Assembly (NCBI GenBank): GCA_965197745.1
Contig: CBDANS010000006.1
Span: 1,248,001 to 1,312,000, forward strand
Source: Opitutales bacterium
GTDB lineage: Bacteria; Verrucomicrobiota; Verrucomicrobiia; Opitutales; PNEW01
Reading direction: 5' to 3'
Length of the DNA stretch: 64,000 nucleotides
The notes beneath the pieces are model-generated. The model ran no database searches. It was not told the origin of the DNA and was given only the letters and a program-made list of their open reading frames with translations. This document shows, piece by piece, positions 2,872 to 22,689 of this stretch. A program made the position numbers and the translations under genes. The first letter of the stretch is position 1; each line of letters begins with the position of its first letter.

Positions 2872-2986
2872 TTTTTAATCGTAGACGAGGTATCGCGCTG
2901 CCAAATATATTGAGCTACACTATGGATTTAGACCGAAGATTCGGGGATCTTTTTTCTTTCCCACCTTGTCATGTCCATTCAGAAGA

Positions 2987-3484: not shown

Positions 3485-3937
3485 TTTAAATACGACAATT
3501 ATTTAAGTTCAGGTTTATCGCTGCCGGCAGTTATGAGCATTGATGAGGTGCTGACTCAAAAGGCTTTCCGGTTAAACCTATCAATATCAATTATACTTAT
3601 CACAGCCAATACGAAATCTACTGAGATTTCACATAAGCCAATAAGCTTTTAATGTGAGAAGTATGTCGGGATCTTAAGATTAATAATCCCCGCCAGTACA
3701 ATTTTCTGAGGAGGATTGAGCATTTTTTGAAAGGTATCGTAAAGGGTGCATAAACTCAAATTTCCTTAAATTTTTGCATAAATAATTGACAGAGCTCTTT
3801 AGGCACGATTAAAGGAAGCCAGTACTCATTTCTCCCAAGCTATTCTTAATTTAACGGTCAGATTTATTATTTAAAAATTGAATTTCGGTTTCGGGAAGTG
3901 TGCTAATTGAAACGAGAAGATAAAAGTAAGACTGATT

Positions 3938-4744
3938 ATGAAATATTTTAAATTGAAACAAACAATTGCAACGTTCCTTGGAGTTATAATTTTAGTTGCA
4001 GTTTATGGATGTGGCGGCGAAAAGGCCCCAGCGGATGAAGCCGAAGCTAAAAGTGCTCCAGCGGCCTCCGCAGGTGGCGTCTCCATTCCGAAAGAGGGAG
4101 CGAAAATAACGGGCAGTGTGGTATTTTCGGGAGACGCGCCGCAATTACGCGATATTGATATGTCTGATGAACCGGTCTGTGTGCATAAATGGGAGGAACA
4201 AGGGACAACTTCAAAGAGTGAGACCTTAGTTTTGGGAGAAGGCCAAAGTATGGCCAATATCCTGGTAAGCATTAAAAGTGGATTAACGGCTCAGACTTAT
4301 AACCCTCCCGCGGAACCGGTAGTTGTCGATCAAAATGGATGTGCTTATTCCCCCCATGTTTTTGCCGTAATGAAAGGTCAGAATATAATCTTTAAAAATT
4401 CTGACGGGGTGTTGCATAATGTTCATGCCCTGCCCGAGAAAAACCGGGAATTCAATTTAGCGATGCCGGGAAGCATGACCGCATCCCCACCGCGCTCTTT
4501 CAAAAAAACTGAGCCCATGTTCCGCATCAAGTGCGATAAGCACCCCTGGATGCTCTCTTATGCCGCGGTCATGGATCATCCCTATTTTTCGGTTACTGGT
4601 GTGGACGGGATGTTTGAAATTATCGGATTGCCCGCCGGGACTTACGAAGTGGAAGCCTGGCACGAGAAATTAGGGACTCAGATTTCCACCGTGACAGTGG
4701 CGGCAAACGCAACCGAGACTGTCGATTTCACATTTTCCAGATAG
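3938..4744 (+). CDS. Lipoprotein with cupredoxin-like and carboxypeptidase-regulatory-like domains; first gene of the oxidase operon
   Basis: Lipobox AVYGC; DQNGCAYSPHV, HNVH, CDKHPWM; GLPAGTYEVEAWHE. Confidence 0.75.
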   Translation: MKYFKLKQTIATFLGVIILVAVYGCGGEKAPADEAEAKSAPAASAGGVSIPKEGAKITGSVVFSGDAPQLRDIDMSDEPVCVHKWEEQGTTSKSETLVLGEGQSMANILVSIKSGLTAQTYNPPAEPVVVDQNGCAYSPHVFAVMKGQNIIFKNSDGVLHNVHALPEKNREFNLAMPGSMTASPPRSFKKTEPMFRIKCDKHPWMLSYAAVMDHPYFSVTGVDGMFEIIGLPAGTYEVEAWHEKLGTQISTVTVAANATETVDFTFSR

Positions 4745-4800
4745 AGACGAATTATTGGTAAGATTATCAAGTAACTTACACCCATTAAATAAAATTAGCT

Positions 4801-6603: not shown

Positions 6604-6621
6604 AATACAGGAGATAATCGG

Positions 6622-7221
6622 ATGTCTACAGTTGAAATTCCTTATATTAGTACCCCCAGACCGGACACCGGATTGGTTAACGCCAAGCTGGGGATCTGGT
6701 TGTTTCTGGCTTCTGAGGTAATGCTTTTCGGGGGACTGTTTTCTACCTATGTCATCCTGCGTGTCGGCGCAGAGACCTGGCCGGAAGGGGCCTCTATTCT
6801 CAATGTACCCCTCGCGACCCTGAATACAATAGTGCTTATCACTTCCAGTATTACAATGGTCATGGCTTGGGCTTCATTAGTGAGAAAAAATTTTAATAAG
6901 TTCCGGCTCTATAATTATGCGACATTGGCCTGCGGCCTGATCTTTCTCATCGTAAAATATTTTGAATACAGTGCAAAAATTCATCATGGCCTTTTCCCTT
7001 CGGAAAGCACCTTTCTTGCCATCTATTTTACCCTTACCGGGTTACATGGATTGCACGTTATTGGAGGTATGCTGACCCTGGCATACCTGCACTGGCCGGG
7101 ATCGAAGATGTGGAAAACAGATCCAGTGCGCTTTACCGGCAGGGTAGAATGCGCCGGACTTTTCTGGCACCTGGTGGACCTCGTCTGGATCTTCCTGTTC
7201 CCCACCCTTTATCTCATGTAA
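6622..7221 (+). CDS. ctaE: Heme-copper oxidase subunit III (short form)
   Basis: WLFLASEVMLFGGLF, TGLHGLHV, FWHLVDLVWIFLFP. Confidence 0.95.
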   Translation: MSTVEIPYISTPRPDTGLVNAKLGIWLFLASEVMLFGGLFSTYVILRVGAETWPEGASILNVPLATLNTIVLITSSITMVMAWASLVRKNFNKFRLYNYATLACGLIFLIVKYFEYSAKIHHGLFPSESTFLAIYFTLTGLHGLHVIGGMLTLAYLHWPGSKMWKTDPVRFTGRVECAGLFWHLVDLVWIFLFPTLYLM

Positions 7222-8013: not shown

Positions 8014-8805
8014 ATGGAACAACCGATGAAAGAATTCTTTGGGATGCCATGGCTACCCATTGATGTTTCAGAGCATGGAGCTGCGCTCGATGATCTAAAC
8101 TGGTGGTTACACCTCTTAGCGATTATCCTTTTTGTGGGATGGACAGGCTATTTTATTTATGTCCTCTTCCGGTTTAAAAAGTCACGTAATCCTCAAGCAG
8201 ATTACGAGGGGACAAAATCTCATTTGGGAACGTATATTGAAGTCGCTGTAATCGTTGCGGAAATTGTTCTTCTAATCGGTTTTTCTATCCCCCTTTGGGC
8301 ACAATGGGCCGATGATTTCCCCGAGGAATCAGAATCAGTGGTCCTTCGCATAGTGGCTGAGCAGTTTGCCTGGAATTTTCACTATCCGGGATCAGACGGG
8401 GTCTTCGGCAATACTGCACCTCAACTGATCGATGTGCAGACTAATCCCGTGGGACTTGATATGGAAGATCCCAATGCGGCCGATGATGTAATAGCCAAAC
8501 GGCTCTATCTTCCCGTAGACAAGCCGATTATTACGCATCTAACCTCCAAGGACGTCATACACAGCTTTGGGATTCCCGCTATGCGGGTAAAACAGGATAT
8601 CATTCCAGGCATAACCATTCCCGTGACTTTCAAAGTCCTGGAGACGGGAAAATATCTTATTGCCTGCAGCCAGTTATGTGGTAACGGTCACTACAGCATG
8701 CGCGGCTTTATCGAAGTCCTGAGCCAGGATAATTATACTGACTGGCTGAATAGGGAGGTAGAGAAAGCTAAAAAACAGGCGGAGGCTGGTGATGATTTAT
8801 GGTAA
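8014..8805 (+). CDS. ctaC: Cytochrome c oxidase subunit II (CuA)
   Basis: Two TM helices, AEQFAWNFHYP, SKDVIHSF, KQDIIPG, CSQLCGNGHYSM. Confidence 0.95.
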   Translation: MEQPMKEFFGMPWLPIDVSEHGAALDDLNWWLHLLAIILFVGWTGYFIYVLFRFKKSRNPQADYEGTKSHLGTYIEVAVIVAEIVLLIGFSIPLWAQWADDFPEESESVVLRIVAEQFAWNFHYPGSDGVFGNTAPQLIDVQTNPVGLDMEDPNAADDVIAKRLYLPVDKPIITHLTSKDVIHSFGIPAMRVKQDIIPGITIPVTFKVLETGKYLIACSQLCGNGHYSMRGFIEVLSQDNYTDWLNREVEKAKKQAEAGDDLW

Positions 8806-8861
8806 TTCATTTCCTCTAATTTTTGATACTTTGAAATTTTCCTAATTAAAGGAACCGGATC

Positions 8862-10586
8862 CTGAGCGGCTATTGTAAAAGTTGTATAATTAAATTTGTC
8901 ATTGCCTCTTGGGCGTTTTTAGCGGGAGCGACAGCACTCCTGGCGCAAACACCGGAAGGAGGTTCGGACGTAGCTTACCGGGATTTTCCCCTGGTCGGTA
9001 GTCGCATCGCCATTTGGGCCATAGGGGAGCTGCATCTTATGTATGCGGCCTTCGTTTTGGCCGTTCCGATGTTCGCTCTCCTCATCGAGTTTATCGGTTA
9101 TAAAACCGGGGATAAGCGATACGATAAGCTGGCCCATGAATTTACCAGTTTATTGAGCGTTTCCTTTTCCTTTACCGCTACTCTCGGAGCGATCCTCACT
9201 TTCATGCTGATGATTCTCTACCCGAGATTCACGAGTTACCTGGTTTCCATTTTTGATAAGACATTCTGGCCTTATGGATTGCTCTTTTTTGCCGAAGCCG
9301 GATTTTTATACAGCTATTACTATGGGTGGGGCAAATTCTCGCCTCGGGTCCACCTTCTTTTGGGTGTAGGATTAAATATCGTTGGTACCGCGATTATGTT
9401 CATCGCTAATGCCTGGCTCGCTTTCATGACTTCTCCAAGTGGAATTGATGAAGCCGGCAATCTTGTCAGCACCTGGGACGCCGTGAACAATTATATTTGG
9501 ATGCCCATAAATATTCACCGCATGATTGCCAATGTCTGCTTCGGCGGAGCCATTGCCGCAGCCTATGCGGGTTTCAAATTTTTAGGCGCGAAAACAAAAG
9601 AGGAAAAAGCGCACTATGATTGGATGGGCTATGTCGGAAACTTTATCGCCATTTCCGCGTTGCTCCCCTTACCCTTCGCCGGTTACTGGCTGGGAAGTGA
9701 GATCTATGCTTTCCGCGCGCAAATGGGAATGGTTTTAATGGGAGGAGCCTTTTCCTGGTTATTTATCATTCAAGCGGTACTTATCGGGATGCTTTTTCTC
9801 GGGGCTAATTATTATCTGTGGCTGGGAATGGAGCGAATAGAGGGTGCCGAAAAGTATAACAAGTTTATAAAATACCTTCTCGCTACGATCACCGGCTGCT
9901 TCATTGTTTGGGCCACGCCGCATTCACTTGTCGCGACGGTTGAAGAAGCGCGTAAAATGGGGGGAGCCCATCACCCGATTCTTGGTATTTTAGGGGTGAT
10001 GTCGGCAAAAAATACCGCGGTTAATATCATGATTCTCACCACCTATATCAGCTTCCTTCTCTATCGCCGGGGAAACAAGGTGGCCACGGTTTCATGGGCG
10101 CCCCTTGGCCATACGGCCCAATTCCTCATTTTTGCGGTTACCATAATTTTTGTTATTATCATTGGGGTGGTGGGTTATTTTATCGAAGCCTCAGTGCGGA
10201 TTGGGCTTTCCGTTCCCCAGGTTCTGTCTGTTTTGTCCGCGATGATCTCAGTTACGATTATTGATATATTCCTCTTCCGAAATGCGCGCATCGTCGGTCA
10301 GATAAAATGGGGAGAGATCTCGGCAAGAGCGCAGTATATGCTGTTTTTCCTCGCCGTAACCTTTACCTGGCTGATGGGGCTGATGGGCTATGTTCGTTCA
10401 GGTCTCCGCCTGCACTGGCATGTTTACGAGGTGATGAAGGATACTTCCGTTGACGCCTTTACCCCGACACTGGGTTTCGCCAGCACCGTGGTTTCATGTA
10501 TCGTTATCATTTTCTTCACCTTTATCATGTTTAATTTCTGGCTAACCGGGCTTCTCCACAAGAAAGATTGGGAGCCTCGCACTTGA
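8862..10586 (+). CDS. Cytochrome bd-like oxidase subunit I (Nitrospira/Nitrospina-type CydA homolog); probable CTG start
   Basis: ELHLMYAAFVLAVP, FFAEAGFLYSYYYGW, ANAWLAFMTSP, NIHRMIAN, GAHHP, MGYVRSGLR.HW. Frame is open from 8850; AAAGGA at 8848-8853 precedes CTG 8862. The ORF-track ATG (9039) lies after the conserved His. Confidence 0.85.
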   Translation: MSGYCKSCIIKFVIASWAFLAGATALLAQTPEGGSDVAYRDFPLVGSRIAIWAIGELHLMYAAFVLAVPMFALLIEFIGYKTGDKRYDKLAHEFTSLLSVSFSFTATLGAILTFMLMILYPRFTSYLVSIFDKTFWPYGLLFFAEAGFLYSYYYGWGKFSPRVHLLLGVGLNIVGTAIMFIANAWLAFMTSPSGIDEAGNLVSTWDAVNNYIWMPINIHRMIANVCFGGAIAAAYAGFKFLGAKTKEEKAHYDWMGYVGNFIAISALLPLPFAGYWLGSEIYAFRAQMGMVLMGGAFSWLFIIQAVLIGMLFLGANYYLWLGMERIEGAEKYNKFIKYLLATITGCFIVWATPHSLVATVEEARKMGGAHHPILGILGVMSAKNTAVNIMILTTYISFLLYRRGNKVATVSWAPLGHTAQFLIFAVTIIFVIIIGVVGYFIEASVRIGLSVPQVLSVLSAMISVTIIDIFLFRNARIVGQIKWGEISARAQYMLFFLAVTFTWLMGLMGYVRSGLRLHWHVYEVMKDTSVDAFTPTLGFASTVVSCIVIIFFTFIMFNFWLTGLLHKKDWEPRT

Positions 10587-10594
10587 TCAACAGG

Positions 10595-11413
10595 ATGAAG
10601 AATATTATCAATATATTTGTCTTAACTATCTTAACCACCCTTTTTTACTGGTATGTGGGGCAGATGGTTCCGCAAAAGGAGACGCATCCACCCGAAAGCA
10701 CGGAAATTCGAGATGACATGAGCACTGAGGAGATGATTGTTGCCGGGGAAAAGATAGCTACGGGCAAGGGAACCTGTTTTCTATGTCATACGATGGGCGC
10801 TGAAGGAACGCGCGCCCCGGACCTGGCCGGTATAGGACAGCGAGCGGCTTCGCGTATAGAGGGTTATAGCGATGTTGATTATCTGGCTGAATCTCTTTTT
10901 GAACCGGCCTTATATGTCGTGGAGGGATTTAATCCTATCATGACGCCATCGAATAAAGCACCTATTAGCTTAACACCGCAGGAAACATTAGCGGTTATTG
11001 CTTATCTTCAAAGTTTAGGGGGCACTCCCTCGGTGACGATGAAGACGAAATTAAAGTACTCTGAAGATGCGACGGTGACTCCGGCACCAGCAACCGTATC
11101 AAGCAGCGATGCCAGTGCGGTTTCTTATGACAATCTCAGCGGGGAAGAGCTATTTAATAAGTATGCGTGTATGGCCTGCCACAGTTTGACGGATCCGATC
11201 CAACTGATTGGCCCAAGCCTCTATGATGTGGGAAATAGATTAAGCAGGGCGGAAATCTATGAATCCATTATCGATCCCGATGCCGTGGTCAACGAGGGTT
11301 ATGTTAAAGGAGTAATGGGAATTACCCTCGAAGGTGCCGGATTTGATAGTAATGTTACACCCCAGCAACTGAGAACGATGGTGGAATTTCTATCGGAGAA
11401 AAAGGGCAGTTAG
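10595..11413 (+). CDS. Membrane-anchored diheme c-type cytochrome
   Basis: N-terminal TM; CFLCH and CMACH; YLAESLFEP..YVVEGF..IM; ATG 10595 is 8 nt after the upstream stop. Confidence 0.9.
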   Translation: MKNIINIFVLTILTTLFYWYVGQMVPQKETHPPESTEIRDDMSTEEMIVAGEKIATGKGTCFLCHTMGAEGTRAPDLAGIGQRAASRIEGYSDVDYLAESLFEPALYVVEGFNPIMTPSNKAPISLTPQETLAVIAYLQSLGGTPSVTMKTKLKYSEDATVTPAPATVSSSDASAVSYDNLSGEELFNKYACMACHSLTDPIQLIGPSLYDVGNRLSRAEIYESIIDPDAVVNEGYVKGVMGITLEGAGFDSNVTPQQLRTMVEFLSEKKGS

Positions 11414-12247
11414 ATGAAATTTCTTATTATACCCCTGGTCTTATTTATTTTATTTGTCATTTATTTATTCAGCAGATCAAAAAAACTCGCCTTGTTTAAC
11501 GCCCTCTTTTGGGTAATTGCCTGGTGGATTGCTTTTTATGTGATTTTTAAAAACGCGATTTCACCTCCGCTTCCATCCTCCATCGTCCAGATGTTTATGG
11601 CGATTATTACGATTGCGCTTTTCTTTTATATCACCGCGGATACTCAGCGATTAAAGGAAACTATCCACCCGATTATTCAATTTCTCGTAAATCGAAAATT
11701 TACCCTGCCCCTGGGATTAGTAATTATCATCATTCCCCTGCTCGTGGCCGGAAAAGTTTATTTAGGTTCTCAGGTAGAAATTGTGGCCCCGGTATTTGGG
11801 AGGAGTATCCATCCCGCGCCGCCTACGGAAATTAATTTTCAGGGCAGACCATTATTACTCAATGAACTTGAAAATCCTTATCGTCATCTGGAGACAGAAA
11901 ATCCTGCTGCTTTCCAGGAACACGTTGAAACTGGCCGTAAAGTGTATTACAATAATTGTGTCTATTGCCATGGGGACACGCTCGACGGGAAAGGAAATTT
12001 CGCCCATGGATTCAATCCCATTCCTGCCAATTTTGCTGACGTCGGTACCATTGCACAATTGCAGGAATCCTATGTTTTCTGGCGTGTAGCTAAGGGAGCC
12101 CCCGATCTCCCCGACGAATCAGGACCCTGGAGTTCTGCCATGCCTGCGTGGGAAAAATTTCTTACTGAAGATGAAATTTGGGATGTCATCCTTTTTATTT
12201 ACGACTTTACCGGGCACAGGCCAAGGGCGCGAGTGGAGCATCATTAA
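11414..12247 (+). CDS. Multi-TM membrane monoheme c-type cytochrome
   Basis: About 4 N-terminal TM helices, RSIHPAPP, CVYCHG, PWSSAMPAWE. Confidence 0.9.
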   Translation: MKFLIIPLVLFILFVIYLFSRSKKLALFNALFWVIAWWIAFYVIFKNAISPPLPSSIVQMFMAIITIALFFYITADTQRLKETIHPIIQFLVNRKFTLPLGLVIIIIPLLVAGKVYLGSQVEIVAPVFGRSIHPAPPTEINFQGRPLLLNELENPYRHLETENPAAFQEHVETGRKVYYNNCVYCHGDTLDGKGNFAHGFNPIPANFADVGTIAQLQESYVFWRVAKGAPDLPDESGPWSSAMPAWEKFLTEDEIWDVILFIYDFTGHRPRARVEHH

Positions 12248-12253
12248 TCTTGA

Positions 12254-13873
12254 ATGGGTATAATGAAATCAGGCATGCAATTATCTAAGAATAGTAGACT
12301 CTTACAGCTGTCATTTGTCCTCACGGTTATAGGTTTTTTTACAGGTAGTATCCTCTACTCCGGCGAAGTAAACCTGGGGACGGAAACGGAGCGCGAAGAA
12401 GGTAAAAAATTGTATTTAAATTATTGCGCCCACTGCCATGGGGTTGATGGTGACGGTGAAGGGAGCGCGATGCGGTATTTTCATCCCAAACCGAGAGACT
12501 TTACCGGGGGGAAATTTAAACTGCGCAGCACCGAAAGCGGCGAACTCCCAACCGATAATGATATTATTCAGGTAATTCAAAAAGGGATGCCATACACCGG
12601 TATGCCTGCGTTCCCTGATTTTAATGAGGAAGAATACCAAAACCTCGCCTATTATCTTAAAACATTTAATGACGATTTCACCGACCCGGATTTTATCGTT
12701 GATCCGCTCAGCTTTCCTAAAGCGCCACCCTACAGTGAAGAATCGGCTTTGAAGGGAAAGGAGATTTATACTATCAATGAGTGCAATGGCTGCCATGGTG
12801 AGTCTGGGCGAGCCGATGGGATATCGGCCTCTACGCTGGAAGACGATTTCGGTGATATAAAATACCATATCCGCCCCGCTGATTTGACAAAAAAATGGAC
12901 ATTCCGACGAGGACCAACGCGCGAGGATATGTACCGTGCTTTTACTACCGGGTTGAATGGAACGCCCATGCCTTCTTATAAAGATTCTATAACCCCAGAA
13001 GACCGGTGGCATCTGGTGAATTATATTTACTCACTCTCCGATCGTGTTGAACCGAATTATTCTACAACCGTAATTGCCGAGTATACAGAAGAGAAGATAA
13101 ACCTTTCAAAAGGTAAATCACTATTTGAAAATAGCGAAGTAGCGTTTTTTCCTGTCGTCGGGCAAGTGATCGAACCCGGGCGTGAGTTTTTTCCGTCTGC
13201 CAATGCCATCGAAGTGAGGGTGATCTACAATCAGGATGATATTGCATTTATGCTTTCCTGGAATGACATGAAAGCTGAAGTTGAAGGGAGTAATGCTCCA
13301 GACATAGCGGTTGAGAAAAATCATCTCGATAAGCCGGAGACTCAGATGAAAACACGGGTCGTTGAGGACCGCGGAATAACGTATTCGGATGCGGTTGCAT
13401 TACAACTTCCCAGTGTCATGCCCGATGGGTTTAAAAAACCCTATTTTCTTTATGGCGACAACAAAAATACCGTAGATATTACCTTTCTTGATCTGGCCGA
13501 TGAAAATGAAGTAAAGCGTTACACCGGTTTTGGATATGATCGGCTTACCCTGGTAGAAAACAATGATGCATCTGCTGTCTCTAATTACGATAACGGTGAA
13601 TGGTCAGTTATTATCAAACGCAATCGGAATTTGGGTGCTGAAGAGGGTCTATCCTTTGTCGAAGAGACCTTTATACCGCTATCGTTTTATGTATGGGATG
13701 GCTTTAACAGTGAACGCGGCATTGATAGCAGCATTAGCTCGTGGTACAGCCTTTATTTAAAAGCCTCGGAAGAGGAATCTCCTATAATCCCCATGATTAG
13801 TTACGGTTTCCTTGCCCTCTTTATAGAATTAATCATAGTTTTTCTCATGAGGAGGAAATTTTCCACGGCTTGA
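12254..13873 (+). CDS. Diheme c-type cytochrome fused to an EbdC/DMSO-reductase-gamma-like domain, with C-terminal TM anchor
   Basis: CAHCHG..PKPRDF..MPAF; CNGCHG..GTPMPSY; then LSWND, SDAVALQLP, NGEWSVIIKR, FYVWDG..SER; hydrophobic C-terminus. Confidence 0.85.
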   Translation: MGIMKSGMQLSKNSRLLQLSFVLTVIGFFTGSILYSGEVNLGTETEREEGKKLYLNYCAHCHGVDGDGEGSAMRYFHPKPRDFTGGKFKLRSTESGELPTDNDIIQVIQKGMPYTGMPAFPDFNEEEYQNLAYYLKTFNDDFTDPDFIVDPLSFPKAPPYSEESALKGKEIYTINECNGCHGESGRADGISASTLEDDFGDIKYHIRPADLTKKWTFRRGPTREDMYRAFTTGLNGTPMPSYKDSITPEDRWHLVNYIYSLSDRVEPNYSTTVIAEYTEEKINLSKGKSLFENSEVAFFPVVGQVIEPGREFFPSANAIEVRVIYNQDDIAFMLSWNDMKAEVEGSNAPDIAVEKNHLDKPETQMKTRVVEDRGITYSDAVALQLPSVMPDGFKKPYFLYGDNKNTVDITFLDLADENEVKRYTGFGYDRLTLVENNDASAVSNYDNGEWSVIIKRNRNLGAEEGLSFVEETFIPLSFYVWDGFNSERGIDSSISSWYSLYLKASEEESPIIPMISYGFLALFIELIIVFLMRRKFSTA

Positions 13874-13894: not shown

Positions 13895-14668
13895 TTAATC
13901 CTGGATTGCCTGTCGGGCTGCTTTCGAGGCCTGCTCCGAAGCGCTCGTGAGAAACATCGAATCAGCACCCGAGGCCAGCATATTAAATCCGATTGAATGA
14001 CAATATTTTATAAGCTCTGGGGAGTGGGCGGGCATAACCGAGAATTTACCGTGTTTATTACTTGCTTGAGCTACTGCCTCCATATCTTTTCCTAACGTTT
14101 CTTTTGTGCGTGGAATATCCATGGAGACACCACGCCGTAAGAGGATGTCATCGGGACCAAGAAACAGGGCATCGATGCCATCAATCGCGGCGATGGATTC
14201 CGCATTTTCCACCGCCCCCGGTGTTTCGATCTGGGCAATGACGAGGGTGTCTTCATTCGCCGTTTGAGAAAACGAACGGCTTTTCCTGTCAATTATACGG
14301 CGTCCACCGAAAGATCGCTCTCCGAGGGGGGGAAACTTCGCGGCACTAACAATAGCTTTTGCCTCTTCTACGGTATTAACAAGGGGGACAATAATGCCGT
14401 CTGCGCCAGCATCGAGGACCATTCCAATAAATCCCGCTTCATGTGAGGGAACGCGTGCGATTGCCGGTAATCCCATGAGTTCACAGACTCTAATCAGATT
14501 CAATATCTCCTGGTAGGCGAGTTGCCCGTGTTGTCCATCGATCCACACCCAATCCCAATCATTGCCGATTCGCTCAAGGATGCCGGGTGCTGGATAACCA
14601 ATGGCAAAATCGAACTGCGTTTCTCCCGCTTTTATTTTTTCTACAAATTCTTTCATCATAGTTTCCAT
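13895..14668 (-). CDS. HpcH/HpaI aldolase family protein
   Basis: DWVWIDGQHG, LDAGADGIIVP, KFPPLGERS, QIET, LFLGPDD. Confidence 0.92.
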   Translation of the reverse strand: METMMKEFVEKIKAGETQFDFAIGYPAPGILERIGNDWDWVWIDGQHGQLAYQEILNLIRVCELMGLPAIARVPSHEAGFIGMVLDAGADGIIVPLVNTVEEAKAIVSAAKFPPLGERSFGGRRIIDRKSRSFSQTANEDTLVIAQIETPGAVENAESIAAIDGIDALFLGPDDILLRRGVSMDIPRTKETLGKDMEAVAQASNKHGKFSVMPAHSPELIKYCHSIGFNMLASGADSMFLTSASEQASKAARQAIQD

Positions 14669-14724: not shown

Positions 14725-15618
14725 TCAGTTATCTGTTTTTGTGACCACGCAGTATTCAGTATAACTTTGGATTTTTTTTAATCCGAGTTTTTCGAGAAAG
14801 TAAAAATCAACTTCATGAGTGGAGAGTTTAGGAATATCTATCAATGGACTTATTGAGGTGGATACATATTTTATGAGGAGACCCAGTAACATCGGGCCCT
14901 TTTCTTTGCTTTTACACCCGAGTCCCAAAATAGTTACCGGTGATTGCTGACTGACATTAGCGGACTCGTCTTCAATGTAGAATAGATAGGCGGCAATTCC
15001 ATCCATGTCCGGTATGCCTAACCCTTTGATTTCTTTTTTTCGATTAATGAGCGTCTGCGTTCTTCGTTCCCATGCCAGCAGGGTTTCATCACTCTGATTA
15101 TTTTCCCCTGTTTGTGTCAGGTAACGATCTCCAGGATCTTCAACTTCAACCGGGATGATCAATTCAGGCGATACTGGCGGGCTCAATGAAGTAGAGGCGG
15201 TAAAGTCACAATAATTCCGGTGCGCTTTAAAATCCAGTTTCCCGAAAAATTTACCTAAGTCTTCTCGATTATCCGGGATAGCGACGGTCAACGCTGGTGG
15301 CCCCAGCACTGCCATTTTATCTTTGAGGGAAGTTACGAGTTGGGGCCCGTAATTATGACCCTGGTAATCTGGTTGGAGGCCCAATCTTAATATTAACGAA
15401 GAGACATTCCTTTTCGCCGTTATCAGGACGCCAACTGGAACATTATTTTCCAGGGCGAGCATGCATGAACTGGCCCAAAGATTGAGATGCTTCACTTCCC
15501 TTTTAAATCCCTCTAAAGTGAGGGGAGGGACATGGGGAAAATGAATGTCGTAACACCGGTTTACGGCTTCGACAAGTAATGGAATATCATCAGGACGACA
15601 AAACCTGAATGAGGGCAT
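14725..15618 (-). CDS. GNAT-fold acetyltransferase-like protein
   Basis: LGLQPDYQGHNYG resembles motif A (V.P.xR/QxxGxG); FFGKLDF and FLEKLGL suggest tandem GNAT halves. Confidence 0.65.
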   Translation of the reverse strand: MPSFRFCRPDDIPLLVEAVNRCYDIHFPHVPPLTLEGFKREVKHLNLWASSCMLALENNVPVGVLITAKRNVSSLILRLGLQPDYQGHNYGPQLVTSLKDKMAVLGPPALTVAIPDNREDLGKFFGKLDFKAHRNYCDFTASTSLSPPVSPELIIPVEVEDPGDRYLTQTGENNQSDETLLAWERRTQTLINRKKEIKGLGIPDMDGIAAYLFYIEDESANVSQQSPVTILGLGCKSKEKGPMLLGLLIKYVSTSISPLIDIPKLSTHEVDFYFLEKLGLKKIQSYTEYCVVTKTDN

Positions 15619-15624
15619 GCCTGA

Positions 15625-17673
15625 TCAAAGGTCGGAACGTTTACTTTCAAGTTCCGACATGACACTGACTTCATTAAGGTTTTCCTTGGGCGGTTGATCG
15701 TGAGGATAATCATTCACCTCTTCACTTCCATATTCCGGAGCGCCGCTCATTCTTGAATTACCGTTGCCGTTAGTCTGAGCGGTAATCATCTCTTCCATCA
15801 TTTTACGCCCAATTTCGATTCCCTTTTCGACAAGTCCAATATCTATGGAAAAAGTTTTCTCTTCTAATGCGATGCTTTCAATTCGCTCCTGTACTTTGTC
15901 ACGCATAAAGCCAGCGGGAACGCGCAATATGCGCTCCGAGGCTTCCGCGGTCCAATCATAAACCGATTTTAAAGGGGTCCCTTTTTTGTCCCTCGCGATT
16001 AACTTGATCCCATCGTTGAAATCATTCTCAACTGAAGACGCGGAGTTGCTGGATGATGCCGTAAGGTTATGTTCTTCCAGGCTGTCTTCATGTCCCAGCT
16101 CTTTAATTATTTCCTCTGCGAATTCTACGGTTACTGCGTTCAAACGTCGCATCCTGGCCGCTTTTTCAATATAAGCTTTGGCCCGTCTTTTCTGGTAGTT
16201 GTCCTTGATCGCTGGTAACAGCTTGCGCGCTTCTTTGGTCCAGGAGAGTTTTCTCCCGTCGTACGAGGTTTCTTCGTTCGATCCTCCCTCTGATTTTATA
16301 ATATCATCAATAATTTTCGGAGTAATCACCTCAAAGTTTGTTGATCCGCACACCGCACACTTAATCGGGTTTTCCTCTTTAGCCGTCATCCCACAACTTT
16401 TACAGATGGCGGTGTTCCCTTTGCGTGCCATATTAAAGGCCAGGGTTTCTGCGAGTTTATCAGTCGCTTTCGCTGCCTGTTTCGGCATGAAGCGATCCAT
16501 CGCTTCATCGATCAAAGAGTTGGTCACGACACTGTGACCCTTTTCCACGGCGAGCCGTAGGATCCCGGTGCGCGCGATACCTTTTACGAGAGGGGGAACT
16601 CGGGTCATACGTTCTTCGGCTTCCTGGGTCCATTGAATACTCTCTTCCGCTTTGCGGTCGAGTTCCGGGTAGACCAATCGTGAATTGAGGAGCACATCAC
16701 AGGGAGCTATGCGCAATAAGTTATCTGTGTTACTCCCCAAACCCGTGTCTTCGAGATCGCTATGGACCCCAATCCTACCGACGATCAGCAGCCAGGGAGG
16801 ATTTTTACGCGTGTAGTCCAATATTTTCTGAAAAGCTTTTCCGTCGAGAAGCACTTTTTCTGCTTCGAGGCCTTTTTCTTTCAACATCTTTTCCGCAACT
16901 TCAAGATGGGACTGATAGATTTGAGCCAGGCCCGTATCAATAATTTCTTCATGTAATTGGTTTTGTTCTTCAAACCGGAAAACTTTAGCCGCTTTATCAG
17001 TGAGGACATCAACGATCCCATTAAAGACCATATAATGGAGATAAGGGTCATATACACCGATGAGCGTAATTTTTTTATTAAATTCTTTCGCCAGTTCAAC
17101 CGCGGTCATGAGTCCACCAAATGACTGCGGACTGCCGTCCACCCCCACAAGAATCGTATCGCGCTCCGGCTCATCATCTACGGGGAGATGTTTTACCACC
17201 CAGATATCGCCTTTCCCGTGCCGGGTCACGCTCTGGCAAACTGCGCCAATCTGACTGTCTTTCGTTTTTCCAATACCCTTAATCCCCAGGACGGTAAGGT
17301 CGTATTCGGAAGCTTCCATATCTTTCAAAATCTGCTCATGGTGCTTCCCGTCCATCATCTTCTTCTCTAATTCCAGGCCCGCTTCTTCGCAGTGTTTGTC
17401 CATTTCAGTGAGATAACAATCGGAAATCAGCTTTAATCCCATGGTGATTAAGCTGTCGTGAATTTTCCGCTGCCTTTCCAATTCGGTCTCCTGGAGGTAT
17501 TCATCGGGCAGGGTGAACTCCATTTGCTTGAATCGATAATCATGCATTTTTGCGGCATAGACATGATTGCCCGTTAATCTGGAGTTATATTTTTTACCAA
17601 CCTCGACCGCGACACTAATTGCCTGGTTAGAATAGTCTGAGTTATCTACAGGGACGAAAATCGATTTAAACAT
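15625..17673 (-). CDS. Multidomain protein: USP-USP-PCP_red-rubredoxin-like-PCP_red-PCP_red
   Basis: IFVPVDNSDYS and ILVGVDGSPQS USP starts; G.SQIGAV and GLGSNT USP ends; three W(T)xEA helical motifs; CKSC-x12-CAVC. Confidence 0.85.
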   Translation of the reverse strand: MFKSIFVPVDNSDYSNQAISVAVEVGKKYNSRLTGNHVYAAKMHDYRFKQMEFTLPDEYLQETELERQRKIHDSLITMGLKLISDCYLTEMDKHCEEAGLELEKKMMDGKHHEQILKDMEASEYDLTVLGIKGIGKTKDSQIGAVCQSVTRHGKGDIWVVKHLPVDDEPERDTILVGVDGSPQSFGGLMTAVELAKEFNKKITLIGVYDPYLHYMVFNGIVDVLTDKAAKVFRFEEQNQLHEEIIDTGLAQIYQSHLEVAEKMLKEKGLEAEKVLLDGKAFQKILDYTRKNPPWLLIVGRIGVHSDLEDTGLGSNTDNLLRIAPCDVLLNSRLVYPELDRKAEESIQWTQEAEERMTRVPPLVKGIARTGILRLAVEKGHSVVTNSLIDEAMDRFMPKQAAKATDKLAETLAFNMARKGNTAICKSCGMTAKEENPIKCAVCGSTNFEVITPKIIDDIIKSEGGSNEETSYDGRKLSWTKEARKLLPAIKDNYQKRRAKAYIEKAARMRRLNAVTVEFAEEIIKELGHEDSLEEHNLTASSSNSASSVENDFNDGIKLIARDKKGTPLKSVYDWTAEASERILRVPAGFMRDKVQERIESIALEEKTFSIDIGLVEKGIEIGRKMMEEMITAQTNGNGNSRMSGAPEYGSEEVNDYPHDQPPKENLNEVSVMSELESKRSDL

Positions 17674-17803
17674 GTATTTTACCTGACGCTGCTATTGATT
17701 TTTAAGGTTTAGGAAACGAACTTTTCAGTCAATTTCACCATCTGAATTATTTACTTAGATGTCAATGAAATGAGAAACTAATCCATGATTTCTCAAACCA
17801 CTT

Positions 17804-19144
17804 TTAGCGTTTCCCAAAAACTTTTGGAGTCGGCATCTTACTGCGTATTTCAGTGAGCACTTCACCCGTCACTCTGTTTATATTATTTTTCAAGCAATAG
17901 CTTTCGACGGACTTTTTTACCATTCCGCGGACAAATGCGGGGATTTCTTTCATGCGTTCTTTTGCCTCGAATTCCCATTCAATTGATCCGGAATTATCCA
18001 GGTCGTGGGGGAGGCCATATTCCATTCCGGGACGGTTATTGATTGCCTCCTTTGAATACTTTCCCGGGGTGTAATCACAGAGCGGATCTTCGGCCATATA
18101 ATCTCCGGTGACCCCATAAGCGCGGGCGCGGCACCCGCCACAAACACCGTTAAATTCGCAGGTCCCACAACGGTCGCCAAGATTGTTTCTTTGACGGATT
18201 TTTAAAAATAAATCCGATTGGTTCCAGATCTCCTCCATCGTTTGATCCTCTAAATTGCCACCGAAATCGGGGAGATAAGGACAAGGGGTCATGTCTCCAT
18301 TGGGACGTATGCCCATGTACTGGGTTCCGGCCGGACAGCCACCCGCACCCCCGGTGAATGATTTTAAAAACCTGGAGTCAGGATCTTCCTCATAAAGGTG
18401 TTTTGCGTAATGAGGCGCGCACTTGGCATTGGTAATCATTTTCCCCTCATATTTTTTCTGGACTAGAGAAAGGGTCGTTAAGACCGCATTGTATTGATCG
18501 GGGCTGATATCAGAAACAAACTGTCCGCGCCCTGTAGGCACTAAAAAATAGAGGTTAAAAACTTTGGCCCCCATTTCTTCATAAGCGAAATCGGCTATAA
18601 CTTCAATCTTACCAAGATTATGTTTTCCCACCGTCGTTTGGACTATAAAAGAGAGACCTGTTTTATGTAATACCTTTGCCCCATTAACCGTGTTTTCCCA
18701 GGCGCCTTTTACCCCGCGAAACCGGTCGTGGAGTTCGGGGTCGAGAGCGTCAAGCGAGAGTGACAGTCCACGCAAACCGCTTTCTTTTAATATCCCGGCC
18801 AGGTTTTCTGTAATGAGAACACCATTGGTTCCACAAACTACCCAAAGTTCCTTTTCACTGCCATATTTAATGATTTCGAGGATATCTCTCCGCAGCAACG
18901 GCTCGCCTCCGGTGAGAATAGTTAATGCTTCAGGGGCAAAGTCAGCGATCTGATCAATGATCGTCTTACATTGTGCGGTGTTAAGTTCGCTGCGATCAGA
19001 AAATCCATCGGTGCTTAACCGGCGAACATCCTTTCCCCCCGCGTCGAGATAACAATGCTCACATTTTAAATTACACCGGTTTGTCAAATTCCACGATATA
19101 ACATATGGCCGCTGGAATTTATTGTTAGATGCTTCGTTTAACAT
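17804..19144 (-). CDS. Radical SAM/SPASM enzyme (AhbD/NirJ-like) with a C-terminal PCP_red domain
   Basis: WNLTNRCNLKCEHCY, TGGEPLLR, LVPTGRG, GGCPAG, TPCPY, CGTCEFNGVCGGCRARAY, EDPLC; C-terminal WEFEAKERMKEIPAFVRGMVKKSVE. Confidence 0.9.
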   Translation of the reverse strand: MLNEASNNKFQRPYVISWNLTNRCNLKCEHCYLDAGGKDVRRLSTDGFSDRSELNTAQCKTIIDQIADFAPEALTILTGGEPLLRRDILEIIKYGSEKELWVVCGTNGVLITENLAGILKESGLRGLSLSLDALDPELHDRFRGVKGAWENTVNGAKVLHKTGLSFIVQTTVGKHNLGKIEVIADFAYEEMGAKVFNLYFLVPTGRGQFVSDISPDQYNAVLTTLSLVQKKYEGKMITNAKCAPHYAKHLYEEDPDSRFLKSFTGGAGGCPAGTQYMGIRPNGDMTPCPYLPDFGGNLEDQTMEEIWNQSDLFLKIRQRNNLGDRCGTCEFNGVCGGCRARAYGVTGDYMAEDPLCDYTPGKYSKEAINNRPGMEYGLPHDLDNSGSIEWEFEAKERMKEIPAFVRGMVKKSVESYCLKNNINRVTGEVLTEIRSKMPTPKVFGKR

Positions 19145-19161
19145 TGTTTAACAATTAATCG

Positions 19162-19192
19162 ATGTGATGCAGGATACTGGATACATGATGCA
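19162..19192. repeat. Left arm of a 31-bp imperfect inverted repeat made of degenerate 7-mers (GATGCAG)
   Basis: ATGTGATGCAGGATACTGGATACATGATGCA; its first 14 bp are identical to the reverse complement of 19617-19647. Confidence 0.8.
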
Positions 19193-19203
19193 AGTATTAT
19201 GAA

Positions 19204-19590
19204 TCAGGTTTTATGCTTTTCTATAACAGATTCTCTAAACCTATATATCTTGGCTCCCAATACATCGTAATCACACTTTATAGCTTCAAAATTCTCAATC
19301 TTGAGTGAACCTGTTTCAAAAAGTAAGTCTAAATGCGTTCTTGTCTCGTCACATGATGCTATCGCATAAATTAAGAATTTTAGAAAATCATTTTTATACA
19401 ATCTTCTGCCATACCCTTCTACAATATTTGTAACTATGGATTTCGATGATCGCCGTATTTGACTTCCTTCTTCATACATTTCGAAATTAGGAAGTTCATT
19501 GATTGTAATCTTATGTATTTTAACTGCTAGTTGCTTTGACAAATTAAAAATCTCAAGATCCTTATAAGATTGTTTGTTCGTATTTATCAC
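19204..19590 (-). CDS. Four-helix-bundle protein (23S rRNA IVP / TIGR02436-like family)
   Basis: SYKDLEIF, FEMYEEGSQIRRSSKSIVTNIVEGYGR, FLIYAIASCDETRTHL; noticeably AT-richer than its neighbours. Confidence 0.92.
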   Translation of the reverse strand: MINTNKQSYKDLEIFNLSKQLAVKIHKITINELPNFEMYEEGSQIRRSSKSIVTNIVEGYGRRLYKNDFLKFLIYAIASCDETRTHLDLLFETGSLKIENFEAIKCDYDVLGAKIYRFRESVIEKHKT

Positions 19591-19616
19591 TGATTATTTT
19601 CATTCAATATTGAACA

Positions 19617-19647
19617 TGCATCCCGCATCCTGCATCCTGCATCACAT
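19617..19647. repeat. Right arm of the 31-bp imperfect inverted repeat (TGCATCC 7-mers)
   Basis: TGCATCCCGCATCCTGCATCCTGCATCACAT; overlaps the stop codon of the upstream gene. Confidence 0.8.
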
Positions 19648-20142
19648 TTCAAATTCTTCTTTCGCGCGATCGAGGCATTCTTCGTTGACTTGAGTGAAAC
19701 CATTTTCACGGGCGAATTTTTCTATGCCCTTTTTTGCCATGGGGCGGGCAAATTCAGGAATTTTCTGTAATCGGACCATCGCTTGTGCCGTCCAATTAAT
19801 TTCACTATTATCGTCATCATTACTTTCCACCGTGTCCATCATTGCGTCGCGTGCCATCTGGGAGAATGGACATTTAGAAGCGGGTTCAGATTTGACCTCG
19901 TTGATGTCGCCGCTTTCATCCAGCGTGATCCCCTGAGATTTGGACACCGTTTCTCCGCCGATTTCTACTCCCATCGAGGTGACCATCTGGGTTTCGAAAG
20001 CATTAGTGAGCATCGCGATTTCAATCAGGCACTCCGGACATTCGTAGCGAATAGAGAGGGAGCCATGATCATCCGGTTTTAAGGGTGCTTCGCTTTTTAC
20101 CAGTTTCATCTGGGTATTACAGGATGTGCATAAGAATTTCAT
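19642..20142 (-). CDS. Zn-ribbon-like (CxxC...CxxC) protein with a C-terminal PCP_red domain
   Basis: CTSC...CPEC; KCPFS in the linker; WTAQAMVRLQKIPEFARPMAKKGIEKFARENG. Confidence 0.85.
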   Translation of the reverse strand: MKFLCTSCNTQMKLVKSEAPLKPDDHGSLSIRYECPECLIEIAMLTNAFETQMVTSMGVEIGGETVSKSQGITLDESGDINEVKSEPASKCPFSQMARDAMMDTVESNDDDNSEINWTAQAMVRLQKIPEFARPMAKKGIEKFARENGFTQVNEECLDRAKEEFEM

Positions 20143-20144
20143 GG

Positions 20145-21026
20145 TCAGGCCTCCAAGGTATTAATTATTTTTTTTGCGATATTTTGGAGAGAAATGTTAG
20201 TGGGGGAATCACCGGTGCATTCGGTAATCGTTCCACGATCACAATGTTCTGCCACCGCTGGATCAAAGGGGACAGTGCCCAGTAAGGGAACATCCCATTT
20301 CGGATTACCCGAGGGGAACAACGGTTTGATTTCATCAGAGTCCGCGCAGTAATAGCCACTCATGTTTTCTATATACCCGATTATGGGAGATGCCGTTTTA
20401 CTAATGGCCACGACTGAGCGAGTGACAACACCTTGAGAAACTTCAGAGGGAATGGTGATGATAATGAAGTTAGTTTTATCACCAAAGAATTCTGCAAACT
20501 GAAAGCATCTTTCAGCGCCGGGTGGAAGGTCAATAATAAGAAAATCCAATTTCCCCCAGTCAGTATCAGCGAGGAAATCGGAGAGGGTAGCAAATTCTTT
20601 TGTCGCCCGCCAGACATGGGAATCGCCGCTAGCCACACTTTTAAAGTCTACAGCTTCCGTTTCCGGCACGAGGGTTCCGAATGATATAACACCAATGCCT
20701 GACCTGGTTTTTGGAACAACGAGACCATTTTCTCCCGGGATGAGTGGAGCCTCGGTGAGGCCCGCGAGGCGAGCCAGGGCCGGACCGTTGATGTCGGCAT
20801 CAAGGAGGGAGACACTATTTCCTAATCCGTTCAGAGTGGACGCGAGATACATCGTAATTGTGCTTTTACCTACGCCACCCTTACCGGAACCGACGGCGAT
20901 GATGTGTTTAATGCCAGCGAGATTTTTTTCGATTTTGGCTTTGTGGGATACGACCTGACCCATAATGTCAGAACCCCCGTCTCCTCTGAGATCGGAGTAA
21001 GATTTTATATCACTCGAGTCACCCAT
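20145..21026 (-). CDS. Mrp/ApbC/NBP35-family P-loop ATPase
   Basis: SGKGGVGKST, LLDADINGP, WGKLDFLIIDLPPG, GYIENMS. Confidence 0.92.
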   Translation of the reverse strand: MGDSSDIKSYSDLRGDGGSDIMGQVVSHKAKIEKNLAGIKHIIAVGSGKGGVGKSTITMYLASTLNGLGNSVSLLDADINGPALARLAGLTEAPLIPGENGLVVPKTRSGIGVISFGTLVPETEAVDFKSVASGDSHVWRATKEFATLSDFLADTDWGKLDFLIIDLPPGAERCFQFAEFFGDKTNFIIITIPSEVSQGVVTRSVVAISKTASPIIGYIENMSGYYCADSDEIKPLFPSGNPKWDVPLLGTVPFDPAVAEHCDRGTITECTGDSPTNISLQNIAKKIINTLEA

Positions 21027-21813: not shown

Positions 21814-22689
21814 TCAATTTTGGTGTGATAAATGCGTAAGTTCCTGTAAGATGTCATCGGGTGTCCATTCATTTCCCTTGTAGATCTTAATCAGTATACC
21901 CGAGGCGTCGATAATAACGGTTCTCAAGTTGTGCGTAATGTCCACTGCCTCACCACCGTCCTGAATGATCGTGAATCCAAATTGTTCAGCGAAATTTATG
22001 ATACTTTCACGATCACCGGTAAGAAAATTCCAAAACGCATAGTCCGCCTGCAATGCGTCACCGTGTTTTTTCAGCACTTCAGGGGTATCGAAGACGGGAT
22101 CTAAACTGATCGATAATAATTTTGTTTTATGACTTAAGTCTCCAGCTTTCTTGAATTCTTCCTGCAATGTATTGAAGTGAAGATCCATGAGAGGACAAAA
22201 ATTGGGTAAGGGGCAACGGGTATAAGTAAAAGTTAGAATAAGATTATTACCTCGAAAGTCCCCTAATTTACGTGAGTGATTATCCTGGTCAATAAAGGTT
22301 GCGTTGGGAATGACATCGCCTTTCTTGAGTAGCGGGACGCCGCTTGTAGGATGCTTCAAGGGTTCAATGCTGATGGGCTCATCGAAACCGGTTTTTACGA
22401 GATCCGTGAGGTAGGCTTCTTTTTGTGTCACTACAAGTTTGGCCTCAATAATGTCCCCGGGCATTCTTCCCTCAAGTAAGGTGACATCTTTAACTTTAAA
22501 AGGCATGGTCATGGCGGGCATGAAGCCTGGTATTTCTTCATGTCTAATCGTGATTTCATTATTCAAAGAATAAATGGAAATTACCTGACCGCGCAGATCG
22601 TAGATGACTTCTCTAGGGGCGGGACGGCAGGATATACAGAGGGCGAAGAGGATAATTATCGAAATAAATAAGCGATGCGTAGATAGCAT
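21814..22689 (-). CDS. CusF-like copper-binding domain fused to SCO1/SenC; probable lipoprotein
   Basis: Lipobox-like CISC; HEEIPGFMPAMTMPF; YTRCPLPNFCP; SISLDP..DTP; ITHNLRT. Confidence 0.9.
   Translation of the reverse strand: MLSTHRLFISIIILFALCISCRPAPREVIYDLRGQVISIYSLNNEITIRHEEIPGFMPAMTMPFKVKDVTLLEGRMPGDIIEAKLVVTQKEAYLTDLVKTGFDEPISIEPLKHPTSGVPLLKKGDVIPNATFIDQDNHSRKLGDFRGNNLILTFTYTRCPLPNFCPLMDLHFNTLQEEFKKAGDLSHKTKLLSISLDPVFDTPEVLKKHGDALQADYAFWNFLTGDRESIINFAEQFGFTIIQDGGEAVDITHNLRTVIIDASGILIKIYKGNEWTPDDILQELTHLSHQN

Follow-up and report, generated by a model that had tools for sequence, protein, structure and literature searches.

Why should an operon without chlorophyll genes contain a small domain of the dark protochlorophyllide reductase (DPOR) five times over? 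The question is raised by a stretch of 64,000 nt from an Opitutales bacterium (GenBank assembly GCA_965197745.1, contig CBDANS010000006.1), referred to here as the window, on which all coordinates are based; the window genome (G000) measures 4.45 Mb and is 92% complete. Six genes on the minus strand of the window (21026-14725) encode, in this order, an Mrp-type P-loop ATPase, a small zinc-ribbon protein ending in a PCP_red domain (PF08369), a four-helix-bundle protein, a radical SAM/SPASM enzyme likewise ending in PCP_red, a tandem-USP protein with further PCP_red domains, and a tandem GNAT protein, separated by successive gaps of 2, 51, 59, 130 and 6 nt. This gene order and its coordinates had been read off the letters alone in an earlier note on the same DNA (the original prediction), and were borne out by open reading frame translations and domain scans. 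In this study, we report that the operon, apart from the four-helix gene, is an undescribed, haem-linked helper system, and that its organising fact is a strict coupling to a bd-like oxidase, the operon for which lies next door, sets the context of the helper genes, and was missed in the earlier note.

The neighbourhood of the operon was surveyed using one genome per species. This yielded 570 confirmed relatives of the USP protein, and the best 80 of the 570 loci were kept; these are, by record title, mostly from Acidobacteriota, the other titles among them being Ca. Moanabacter, Bdellovibrionales, Thermodesulfobacteriota, Acidimicrobiia, Ca. Eisenbacteria and Solirubrobacterales. Neighbours were identified by clustering the open reading frames of the related loci together with Pfam and NCBIfam scans, and only loci with enough flanking sequence were included in the denominators, except where a count is given out of 80. 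The commonest neighbours of the USP relatives were homologues of the window genes at 9039-13873, which belong to the bd-like oxidase operon. A CydA-like gene was found beside the USP gene in 70/71 loci and a haem b/dihaem c protein in 73/74, the latter directly upstream on the same strand in 64/80, and a GNAT gene adjoined the USP gene in 71/74. The USP and GNAT genes come directly after the oxidase structural genes, on the same strand, in 64/80 and 67/80 loci, respectively. Mrp was found in 39/65 loci, the small PCP_red protein in 36/64 and the radical SAM enzyme in 29/61, with Mrp and the small protein adjacent in 40 of the 41 loci containing both.

The gene set was kept through three gene orders. 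The first runs from the oxidase genes through USP, GNAT, Mrp and the small zinc-ribbon/PCP_red protein to the radical SAM enzyme (for example, L050). In the second, at a locus titled Bdellovibrionales (L032:7-11045), Mrp, the small protein and the radical SAM enzyme are followed on one strand by the CydA-like gene, two cytochromes c, the haem b protein, USP and GNAT. In the third, the helper operon is convergent with the oxidase operon, as in the window and at a second locus, L001. A conserved multi-gene set, and not a chance neighbourhood, is what the 80 related loci show. The original prediction had proposed a survey of this kind across phyla; the recurrence that it looked for was found. For the USP and GNAT genes, the linkage to the oxidase genes proved to be closer than that to Mrp.

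The same coupling was seen genome for genome in phylum samples. Among the 251 genomes sampled from the phylum of the window genome, the USP gene and the CydA-like gene were each found once, both in the window genome. In the phylum of a Vicinamibacterales genome (G251), 15 of 201 genomes had the USP gene and exactly these had the CydA-like gene; in 14 of them a single contig carried both, at a distance of about 5 kb (no more than about 6 kb). In the phylum of G253, 2 of 124 genomes had both genes and none had only one of them. PF08369 matches were found in 18 of the 201 genomes of the G251 sample, comprising the 15 USP-positive genomes and three others. A further sample, centred on a genome titled 'Deltaproteobacteria' (G252), consisted of the same genomes as the G251 sample and is not independent of it. 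Nor do related genomes within a sample count as independent cases. A functional tie between the helper set and the bd-like oxidase is thus very probable.

The oxidase operon (8014..13873, plus strand), as identified by Pfam and NCBIfam matches, converges on the helper operon. It consists of a CoxB-like gene (8014-8805), a CydA-like gene (9039-10586), a dihaem cytochrome c gene (10568-11413), a membrane cytochrome c gene (11414-12247) and a gene for a dihaem c protein fused to an EB_dh/NxrC-type haem b domain (12254-13873), all on the plus strand. The CydA-like product has a weak full-length match to the cytochrome bd subunit I family, and its gene is the only PF01654 (cytochrome-bd-family) match in the window genome. 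Its true start may lie upstream of the first ATG (9039), since the open frame amounts to 578 aa and the alignment of one homologue begins at 8967. Conserved gene clusters of Nitrospira, Nitrospina and anammox bacteria are described, in the available portions of two publications (PMC6606698, PMC3578206), as containing a 14-helix 'bd-like oxidase', two c-type cytochromes and an alternative NxrC; the same portions state that the bd-like protein retains the haem b ligands and lacks the quinol site, and that one bd-like paralogue was proposed as a novel terminal oxidase. OR-N and OR-C are names given to such proteins in the main text of a preprint by Murali et al. As far as these partial texts allow the comparison, the window operon has the same composition as those clusters (OR-N type of Murali et al.), but it contains in addition a CoxB-like gene, and no nitrite oxidoreductase gene was found in the window.

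Two genes next to or within the helper operon do not belong to the set. The four-helix gene (19204..19590, minus strand; PF05635 23S_rRNA_IVP, 92 bits) is of the 23S rRNA-IVP type and had been taken in the earlier note for an insertion, which the survey upheld: it was found in 0/80 related loci, and it is missing from the otherwise collinear locus L001, where a gap of about 50 nt takes its place. An HpcH aldolase gene (13895-14668) was likewise found in 0/80 related loci. Both genes were therefore ruled out as members and are not counted in the set.

All five PCP_red motifs quoted in the original prediction were recovered from the window translations, and its count of five copies in three proteins held, four being detected by Pfam and the fifth by profile-profile comparison. 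The gathering score of PF08369 is 32.5 bits. Scored alone, the copy of the small protein (19660..19794) reached 56.2 bits, that of the radical SAM enzyme (17846..17977) 50.9 bits and the first copy of the USP protein (16501..16632) 41.7 bits; the third USP copy (15826..15954) reached 30.9 bits, slightly below the gathering score, and matched the small-protein copy with an hhalign probability of 97.5. All five copies are encoded on the minus strand. The second USP copy (16090..16251, residues 475-528) is degenerate, gave no Pfam match in the window protein and was detected with hhalign only. For this purpose, the USP copies were cut from an 87-sequence alignment and compared profile to profile. 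Copy 2 matched copy 3 with a probability of 96.4 (E 1.4e-9) and the small-protein PCP_red with 91.7 (E 7.6e-7), against just 20 for copy 1, while control stretches from elsewhere in the USP protein gave probabilities of 1.1 or less. The middle copy also gave a weak Pfam match in 4 of 5 other genomes (E 0.001-0.005). Four Pfam matches and the profile-profile support for copy 2 therefore make five PCP_red domains in three proteins.

A scan of the whole window genome with PF08369 gave four sites in 4.45 Mb, every one inside the helper operon, and among five other module-bearing genomes (G251-G255) the PCP_red matches all lay within the module, except for one weak sub-threshold match. No PCP_red protein of DPOR size was found in that scan of the window genome, in line with the earlier observation that the window contains no photosynthesis genes. 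The profile of the small protein matched the C-termini of BchB/ChlB structures in the PDB (2XDQ_B, 2YNM_D, 3AEK_B), Asr4154 (2L09) and 2KRU, with E values from 3e-9 to 1e-6. Membership of the DPOR BchB/ChlB family was not found: the BchB models aligned over their last ~55-80 positions only, scoring 44 and 36 bits where the cut-offs are 490-912. What the module proteins have in common with BchB/ChlB, 2L09 and 2KRU is thus the helical PF08369 domain of ~45 residues; they differ from BchB/ChlB in that the domain comes without the nitrogenase-like body, in five copies, in three unrelated proteins, and in a setting without chlorophyll genes. In the part of PMC4071322 that was available, the C-terminal helix of BchB is described as covering the protochlorophyllide cavity. 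This fits a tetrapyrrole-facing role for that part of BchB, and it would bear on PCP_red if the helix belongs to the domain.

The radical SAM enzyme (17804..19144, minus strand; 446 aa) matched Radical_SAM with 82.3 bits, SPASM with 38.7 bits and PCP_red with 46.3 bits (residues 390-433), and its translation contains a CxxxCxxC motif. In NCBIfam, its best match was AhbD (TIGR04545) with 303.4 bits (304.1 in the genome scan), followed by NirJ2 (TIGR04055) with 295.9 bits, TIGR04053 with 263 bits against a cut-off of 395, AhbC with 164 bits and NirJ with 153 bits; the cut-off is 500 for both AhbD and NirJ2. A haem-type radical SAM enzyme of the AhbD/NirJ2/AhbC clade, in keeping with the haem or other cofactor named in the original prediction, is thus supported by two best matches that both stay below their cut-offs. 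AhbD and NirJ2 have in common with the module enzyme the radical SAM core, the CxxxCxxC motif and the SPASM domain, and the match spans positions 1-339 of the AhbD model; the module enzyme differs from them in its extra C-terminal PCP_red domain, in its scores (303 and 296 versus 500), and in its regular company, which consists of Mrp, the zinc-ribbon/PCP_red protein, the USP-PCP_red protein and the bd-like oxidase. The window genome yielded no AhbA, AhbB or AhbC partner.

The haem genes of the window genome were compared with those of the five other module-bearing genomes. The window genome has HemF (428 bits) and ferrochelatase, so that it could apparently make haem b by the ordinary, oxygen-dependent route even without the operon; its HemN-like genes are sub-cut-off only (185/325 bits). 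Among the five other genomes, ChdC-family genes were found in 4 and HemF in 2. In one of them (G252, L086:5748-13479), the module is split, the radical SAM/PCP_red gene standing 24 kb away from the other members and being followed by genes for a ChdC-family protein, a ferrochelatase and an amine oxidase (CgoX-like), and after the latter by alternative-complex-III genes (NrfD/ActC-like, ActD). This placement favours a role at the coproheme step, where the enzyme may provide an oxygen-independent second route. In another (G254:C11:44477-44839), a ChdC-family frame lies about 10 kb from the module and contains in-frame stops (one TGA and one TAG).

The Mrp gene (20145..21026, minus strand; 293 aa; PF10609, 188.4 bits) encodes an Mrp/NUBPL-type P-loop ATPase with an intact Walker A motif, GKGGVGKS being invariant in an alignment of 21 homologues, and the alignment revealed a further invariant motif, G-D-G-G-S, at the N-terminus. 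Against NCBIfam, the protein stayed under the cut-offs of MrpORP (NF041136; 179.5/450) and ApbC (122/348). A second Mrp gene elsewhere in the genome (G000:C7:2109996-2110742) scored higher, with 308 versus 188 bits, and because of this better-scoring housekeeping copy the operon Mrp is regarded as a dedicated divergent paralogue. In comparison with the Mrp/ApbC/NBP35 carriers, including MrpORP, the P-loop ATPase fold and GKGGVGKS are alike and most module homologues retain CxxC; the sub-cut-off scores, the G-D-G-G-S motif, the existence of a second paralogue and the missing second cysteine of the window copy set the module protein apart.

The small protein (19642..20142, minus strand; 166 aa) starts 2 nt past the Mrp stop. 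It consists of an N-terminal CxxC...CxxC zinc ribbon, whose four cysteines were seen in a 22-sequence alignment, a variable linker and the C-terminal PCP_red domain (PF08369, 53.9 bits, residues 117-161). In the linker, a Cys-Pro-Phe motif (19864..19872, minus strand; C91, P92, F93) is invariant in 22/22 sequences. The motif resembles haem regulatory (CP-type) motifs, and we take it to be a candidate haem binder. A C-P-[FVI] sequence was also noticed in the C-terminal tail of some USP homologues, the window USP protein being without it.

The USP protein (15625..17673, minus strand; 682 aa; Usp, 117.5 bits in two stretches; PCP_red, 71.5 bits in two stretches) is cytoplasmic and is built of tandem USP domains, PCP_red copy 1, a CxxC/CxxC zinc ribbon, the degenerate copy 2, copy 3 and a conserved C-terminal helix, with both CxxC pairs invariant across 87 sequences. 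Its best 120 database matches all combined Usp with PCP_red, at 57-85% identity and 92-100% query coverage, and 311 clusters at E <= 1e-30 were found among cluster representatives, including forms of ~400 aa and ~900 aa. In the ESM Atlas, the commonest phyla of Usp+PCP_red clusters were Nitrospirota (511 members), Pseudomonadota (127) and Acidobacteriota (85). A divergent short form was noticed at G357:C21:10208-12648. Its frame of 466 aa has a USP match of only 37% identity, covering residues 2-391, and the next frame matches PCP_red strongly.

In an AlphaFold (AF2) model of the window USP protein (pLDDT 77), two USP folds precede a run of helical repeats. Foldseek matched the model to ATP-bound tandem USPs (3ab8, E 6.2e-16; Rv2623) and to 3cis (E 4.6e-15), and the search with the whole model returned USP folds only. 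The nucleotide motif of ATP-binding USPs is G-2x-G-9x-G-[ST]. By eye, the consensus of USP domain 1 has G130, G133 and G143, followed by Ser in most rows and by Ala after G143 in the window protein, and in USP domain 2 the glycine spacing in the region of the nucleotide motif is 10.

The GNAT gene (14725..15618, minus strand; 297 aa; Acetyltransf_1, 22.2 bits, cut-off 20.7) starts 6 nt past the USP stop. Its AF2 model (pLDDT 93) has a tandem GNAT fold, and Foldseek returned 3ddd (E 1.3e-14), 3tt2, 5kf1, 2wpw and Eis2, the tandem GNATs 3ddd, 3tt2, 5kf1 and 2wpw falling between E 1e-14 and 1e-12. The acetyl-CoA loop of GNAT proteins has the motif [RQ]-x-x-G-x-[GA]. It reads R-R-Q-G-H-G in most homologues and Q-G-H-N-Y-G in the window, with Asn for the central Gly. 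This substitution, the inserted four-helix gene, the loss of the second cysteine in Mrp and the convergent gene order (the last two also seen in L001) mark the window copy, as does its sole occurrence among the 251 genomes sampled from its phylum. The Pfam scan proposed in the earlier note was run, and PCP_red, Usp, SPASM and Mrp-type families all scored in it.

Taken with the coupling to the oxidase, these features suggest that the helper operon is a cytoplasmic haem-finishing and hand-over module for the adjacent bd-like oxidase, a reading to which we give a rough probability of one half. The radical SAM enzyme, as a relative of AhbD and NirJ2, would modify a side chain of an iron tetrapyrrole without the need for oxygen, the simplest case being the conversion of coproheme to haem b, and the dedicated Mrp paralogue would serve its Fe-S clusters. 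The PCP_red domains of the radical SAM, zinc-ribbon (Cys-Pro-Phe) and USP proteins could act as a common handle for the tetrapyrrole or for the proteins that hold it, and transfer might proceed through this handle from the enzyme to a carrier and on to the oxidase apoproteins. The tandem USP domains may tie the hand-over to the nucleotide state of the cell. In favour of this reading, AhbD, NirJ2, AhbC and NirJ, which are all best matches of the radical SAM enzyme, are haem-modifying families.

Several observations weigh against it. The radical SAM enzyme scored below every NCBIfam cut-off (AhbD, 303/500), which leaves its reaction a proposal. No coproheme source is evident in the window genome, which is 92% complete: HemF and ferrochelatase are present, and neither ChdC nor a second AhbC/NirJ-type enzyme was found there. 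Since one or other of ChdC-family and HemF genes is present in all five other module-bearing genomes, the radical SAM enzyme would be at most a second route to haem b. The Mrp of the window and that of L001 (4426-5355) lack the second Cys of CxxC, the position reading C-A-D-S and C-A-E-T, respectively, in place of the CxxC kept by 19 of the 21 aligned homologues; the window protein thus has the P-loop with its deviant Walker A but not the CxxC of Mrp/ApbC/NBP35 proteins. The GNAT protein, with the Asn in its acetyl-CoA loop, is given no role in this model. Free-standing PCP_red domains and the CPF motif are no more than putative binders of a tetrapyrrole. As for the counts, two of the 15 genomes of the G251 sample (G303 and G400) are unpublished, the count without both being 13/199, and the locus counts overstate independence because most of the related loci are from Acidobacteriota and are kin to one another.

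The original prediction had given PCP_red a different role, that of a tag, used over and over, for docking to the dimer of the Mrp ATPase, much as BchB would dock BchL. ATPase, radical SAM enzyme and USP scaffold would in this way come together in one ATP-driven machine. We consider this rather unlikely, though it can coexist with haem finishing and hand-over. BchL, the partner of BchB in DPOR, and Mrp both belong to the SIMIBI class, which speaks for the idea, as do the gene positions: a mere 2 nt separate the Mrp stop from the start of the small protein, and the pair is adjacent in 40/41 loci. A complex prediction for two Mrp chains and the small PCP_red protein gave a score of 0.52, against 0.02 for the best of three controls, which is graded as weak support; the runs shared at least 61% of their contacts, and the partner pLDDT was at least 63. 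In the calibration of the method, 116 of 157 solved complexes came up to the mark, as did 2 of 215 mismatched pairs, and scores past the mark but not above 0.60 were obtained for just 18 of the 157 solved complexes and for both passing mismatches; the prediction made here used custom alignments, in a set-up unlike the calibration cases. On the modelled complex, the 2-nt gap and the 40/41 adjacency, a pairing of Mrp with the small protein is plausible. The contacting domain cannot be named because the complex prediction gave no interface, and Mrp may be touched by the zinc ribbon or the linker instead of PCP_red. The docking idea as drawn in the earlier note was thus carried forward as far as the pair of proteins but not as far as the domain. 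Further points tell against PCP_red as the docking element: the USP protein, although three of the five copies are its own, keeps company with the oxidase genes (70/71 loci) and has Mrp in reach in 39/65 only; the available part of PMC4071322 gives the BchB C-terminal helix a substrate-covering role and not one in docking the L protein; L-protein docking by the BchB C-terminus is not mentioned in the portion available of a review (PMC13474568); and the window Mrp lacks the second cluster-binding Cys.

Another alternative retains the delivery by PCP_red proteins and replaces the product. The radical SAM enzyme would make a modified haem, not haem b, and with this cofactor the bd-like oxidase would reduce oxygen. 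In its favour, the enzyme forms a distinct clade below the cut-offs of AhbD, NirJ2, AhbC and NirJ, it belongs to a set that strictly co-occurs with one type of oxidase, and in the window genome the ordinary route to haem b looks complete (HemF, ferrochelatase), with no coproheme source evident. On the other side, the modified haem is a purely hypothetical product, the gene in G252 stands beside ordinary coproporphyrin-route genes (ChdC family, ferrochelatase, CgoX-like), a setting that suits plain haem b better, and bd-like proteins are described, in the part of PMC3578206 available, as keeping the haem b ligands. We regard a modified product as improbable. The same low standing is given to its fuller form, in which a new branch of the AhbD/NirJ radical SAM clade makes, and the module delivers, a new haem derivative that is the catalytic cofactor of OR-N-type oxidases, with PCP_red as a portable tetrapyrrole binder; if it were true, the helper set would be key to how Nitrospira-like and many other bacteria build their putative terminal oxidases.

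Less probable still is a division of the set in two, with the USP and GNAT proteins as cytoplasmic regulatory or structural subunits of the oxidase, for example in nucleotide sensing, instead of maturation factors, and with Mrp, the small protein and the radical SAM enzyme as a separate unit for haem synthesis that has no more than the domain in common with them. The position of the USP and GNAT genes directly after the oxidase genes on the same strand (64/80 and 67/80), with the Mrp block often farther away, is in its favour, and the USP protein is about as conserved as the CydA-like protein (57-62% versus 63-73% identity to the Acidobacteriota homologues); the modelled fold, matching ATP-binding tandem USPs, would also suit a sensor. 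Five copies of a rare domain across both blocks argue instead for one system. Nearly all PCP_red matches fall in the module (each of the 4 in G000, and every one in G251-G255 except a weak sub-threshold match), PF08369 was found in all 15 USP-positive genomes of the G251 sample, and in L032 the oxidase genes are flanked by the two blocks within a single array. A role as the general haem b synthase of the organism was rejected on the HemF and ferrochelatase genes of the window genome and the ChdC-family or HemF genes of the five others.

Haem finishing and hand-over by a module of this kind would have a partial parallel in the nir genes for haem d1. According to the portion available of PMC7242693, a radical SAM gene of the same clade stands there too beside a respiratory enzyme that uses a tetrapyrrole, but the partners differ, the module having no NirDLGH-type decarboxylase and no NirN-type gene. 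The earlier note had called the system undescribed, and no description of the helper set was found in the literature searched, including the main text of Murali et al.; details of OR-N operons may be contained in the supplements of that preprint. Likewise, the texts searched on bd-like clusters, as far as they were available, made no mention of USP, radical SAM or PCP_red genes beside them, and the operon contexts of OR-N proteins may again be given in those supplements.

The bd-like oxidases are described, in the parts of PMC6606698 and PMC3578206 available, as proposed, biochemically uncharacterised terminal oxidases of nitrite oxidisers and many uncultured bacteria. A helper set that matches them genome for genome provides a handle on how they acquire their cofactors, and the soluble radical SAM enzyme, the 166-aa Cys-Pro protein and the USP fusion are far easier to express and assay than a membrane complex. 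PCP_red, for its part, gains a second, non-photosynthetic context, which may reveal the job of the domain in both settings, its role in DPOR being poorly defined in the partial texts at hand. Apart from the one statement in PMC4071322, nothing usable on that role was found in the available portions of a preprint (10.1101/2025.02.17.634645) and of two reviews (PMC7242693, PMC13474568).

The surroundings of the two operons form a respiratory island (2359-7221 and 21814-22689) with plastocyanin-like, cytochrome c and COX3 genes. Beyond the helper operon lies an SCO1/CusF fusion (21814-22689). A gene with a CarboxypepD_reg domain directly precedes an aa3-type COX1 gene in the window, and the pair recurs in L087 (9958-12604). 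Farther along, an open reading frame of 1458 aa (39012-43388, minus strand) lies in the most G+C-rich part of the window, the G+C fraction being 0.547 at 40-42 kb and ~0.46 elsewhere.

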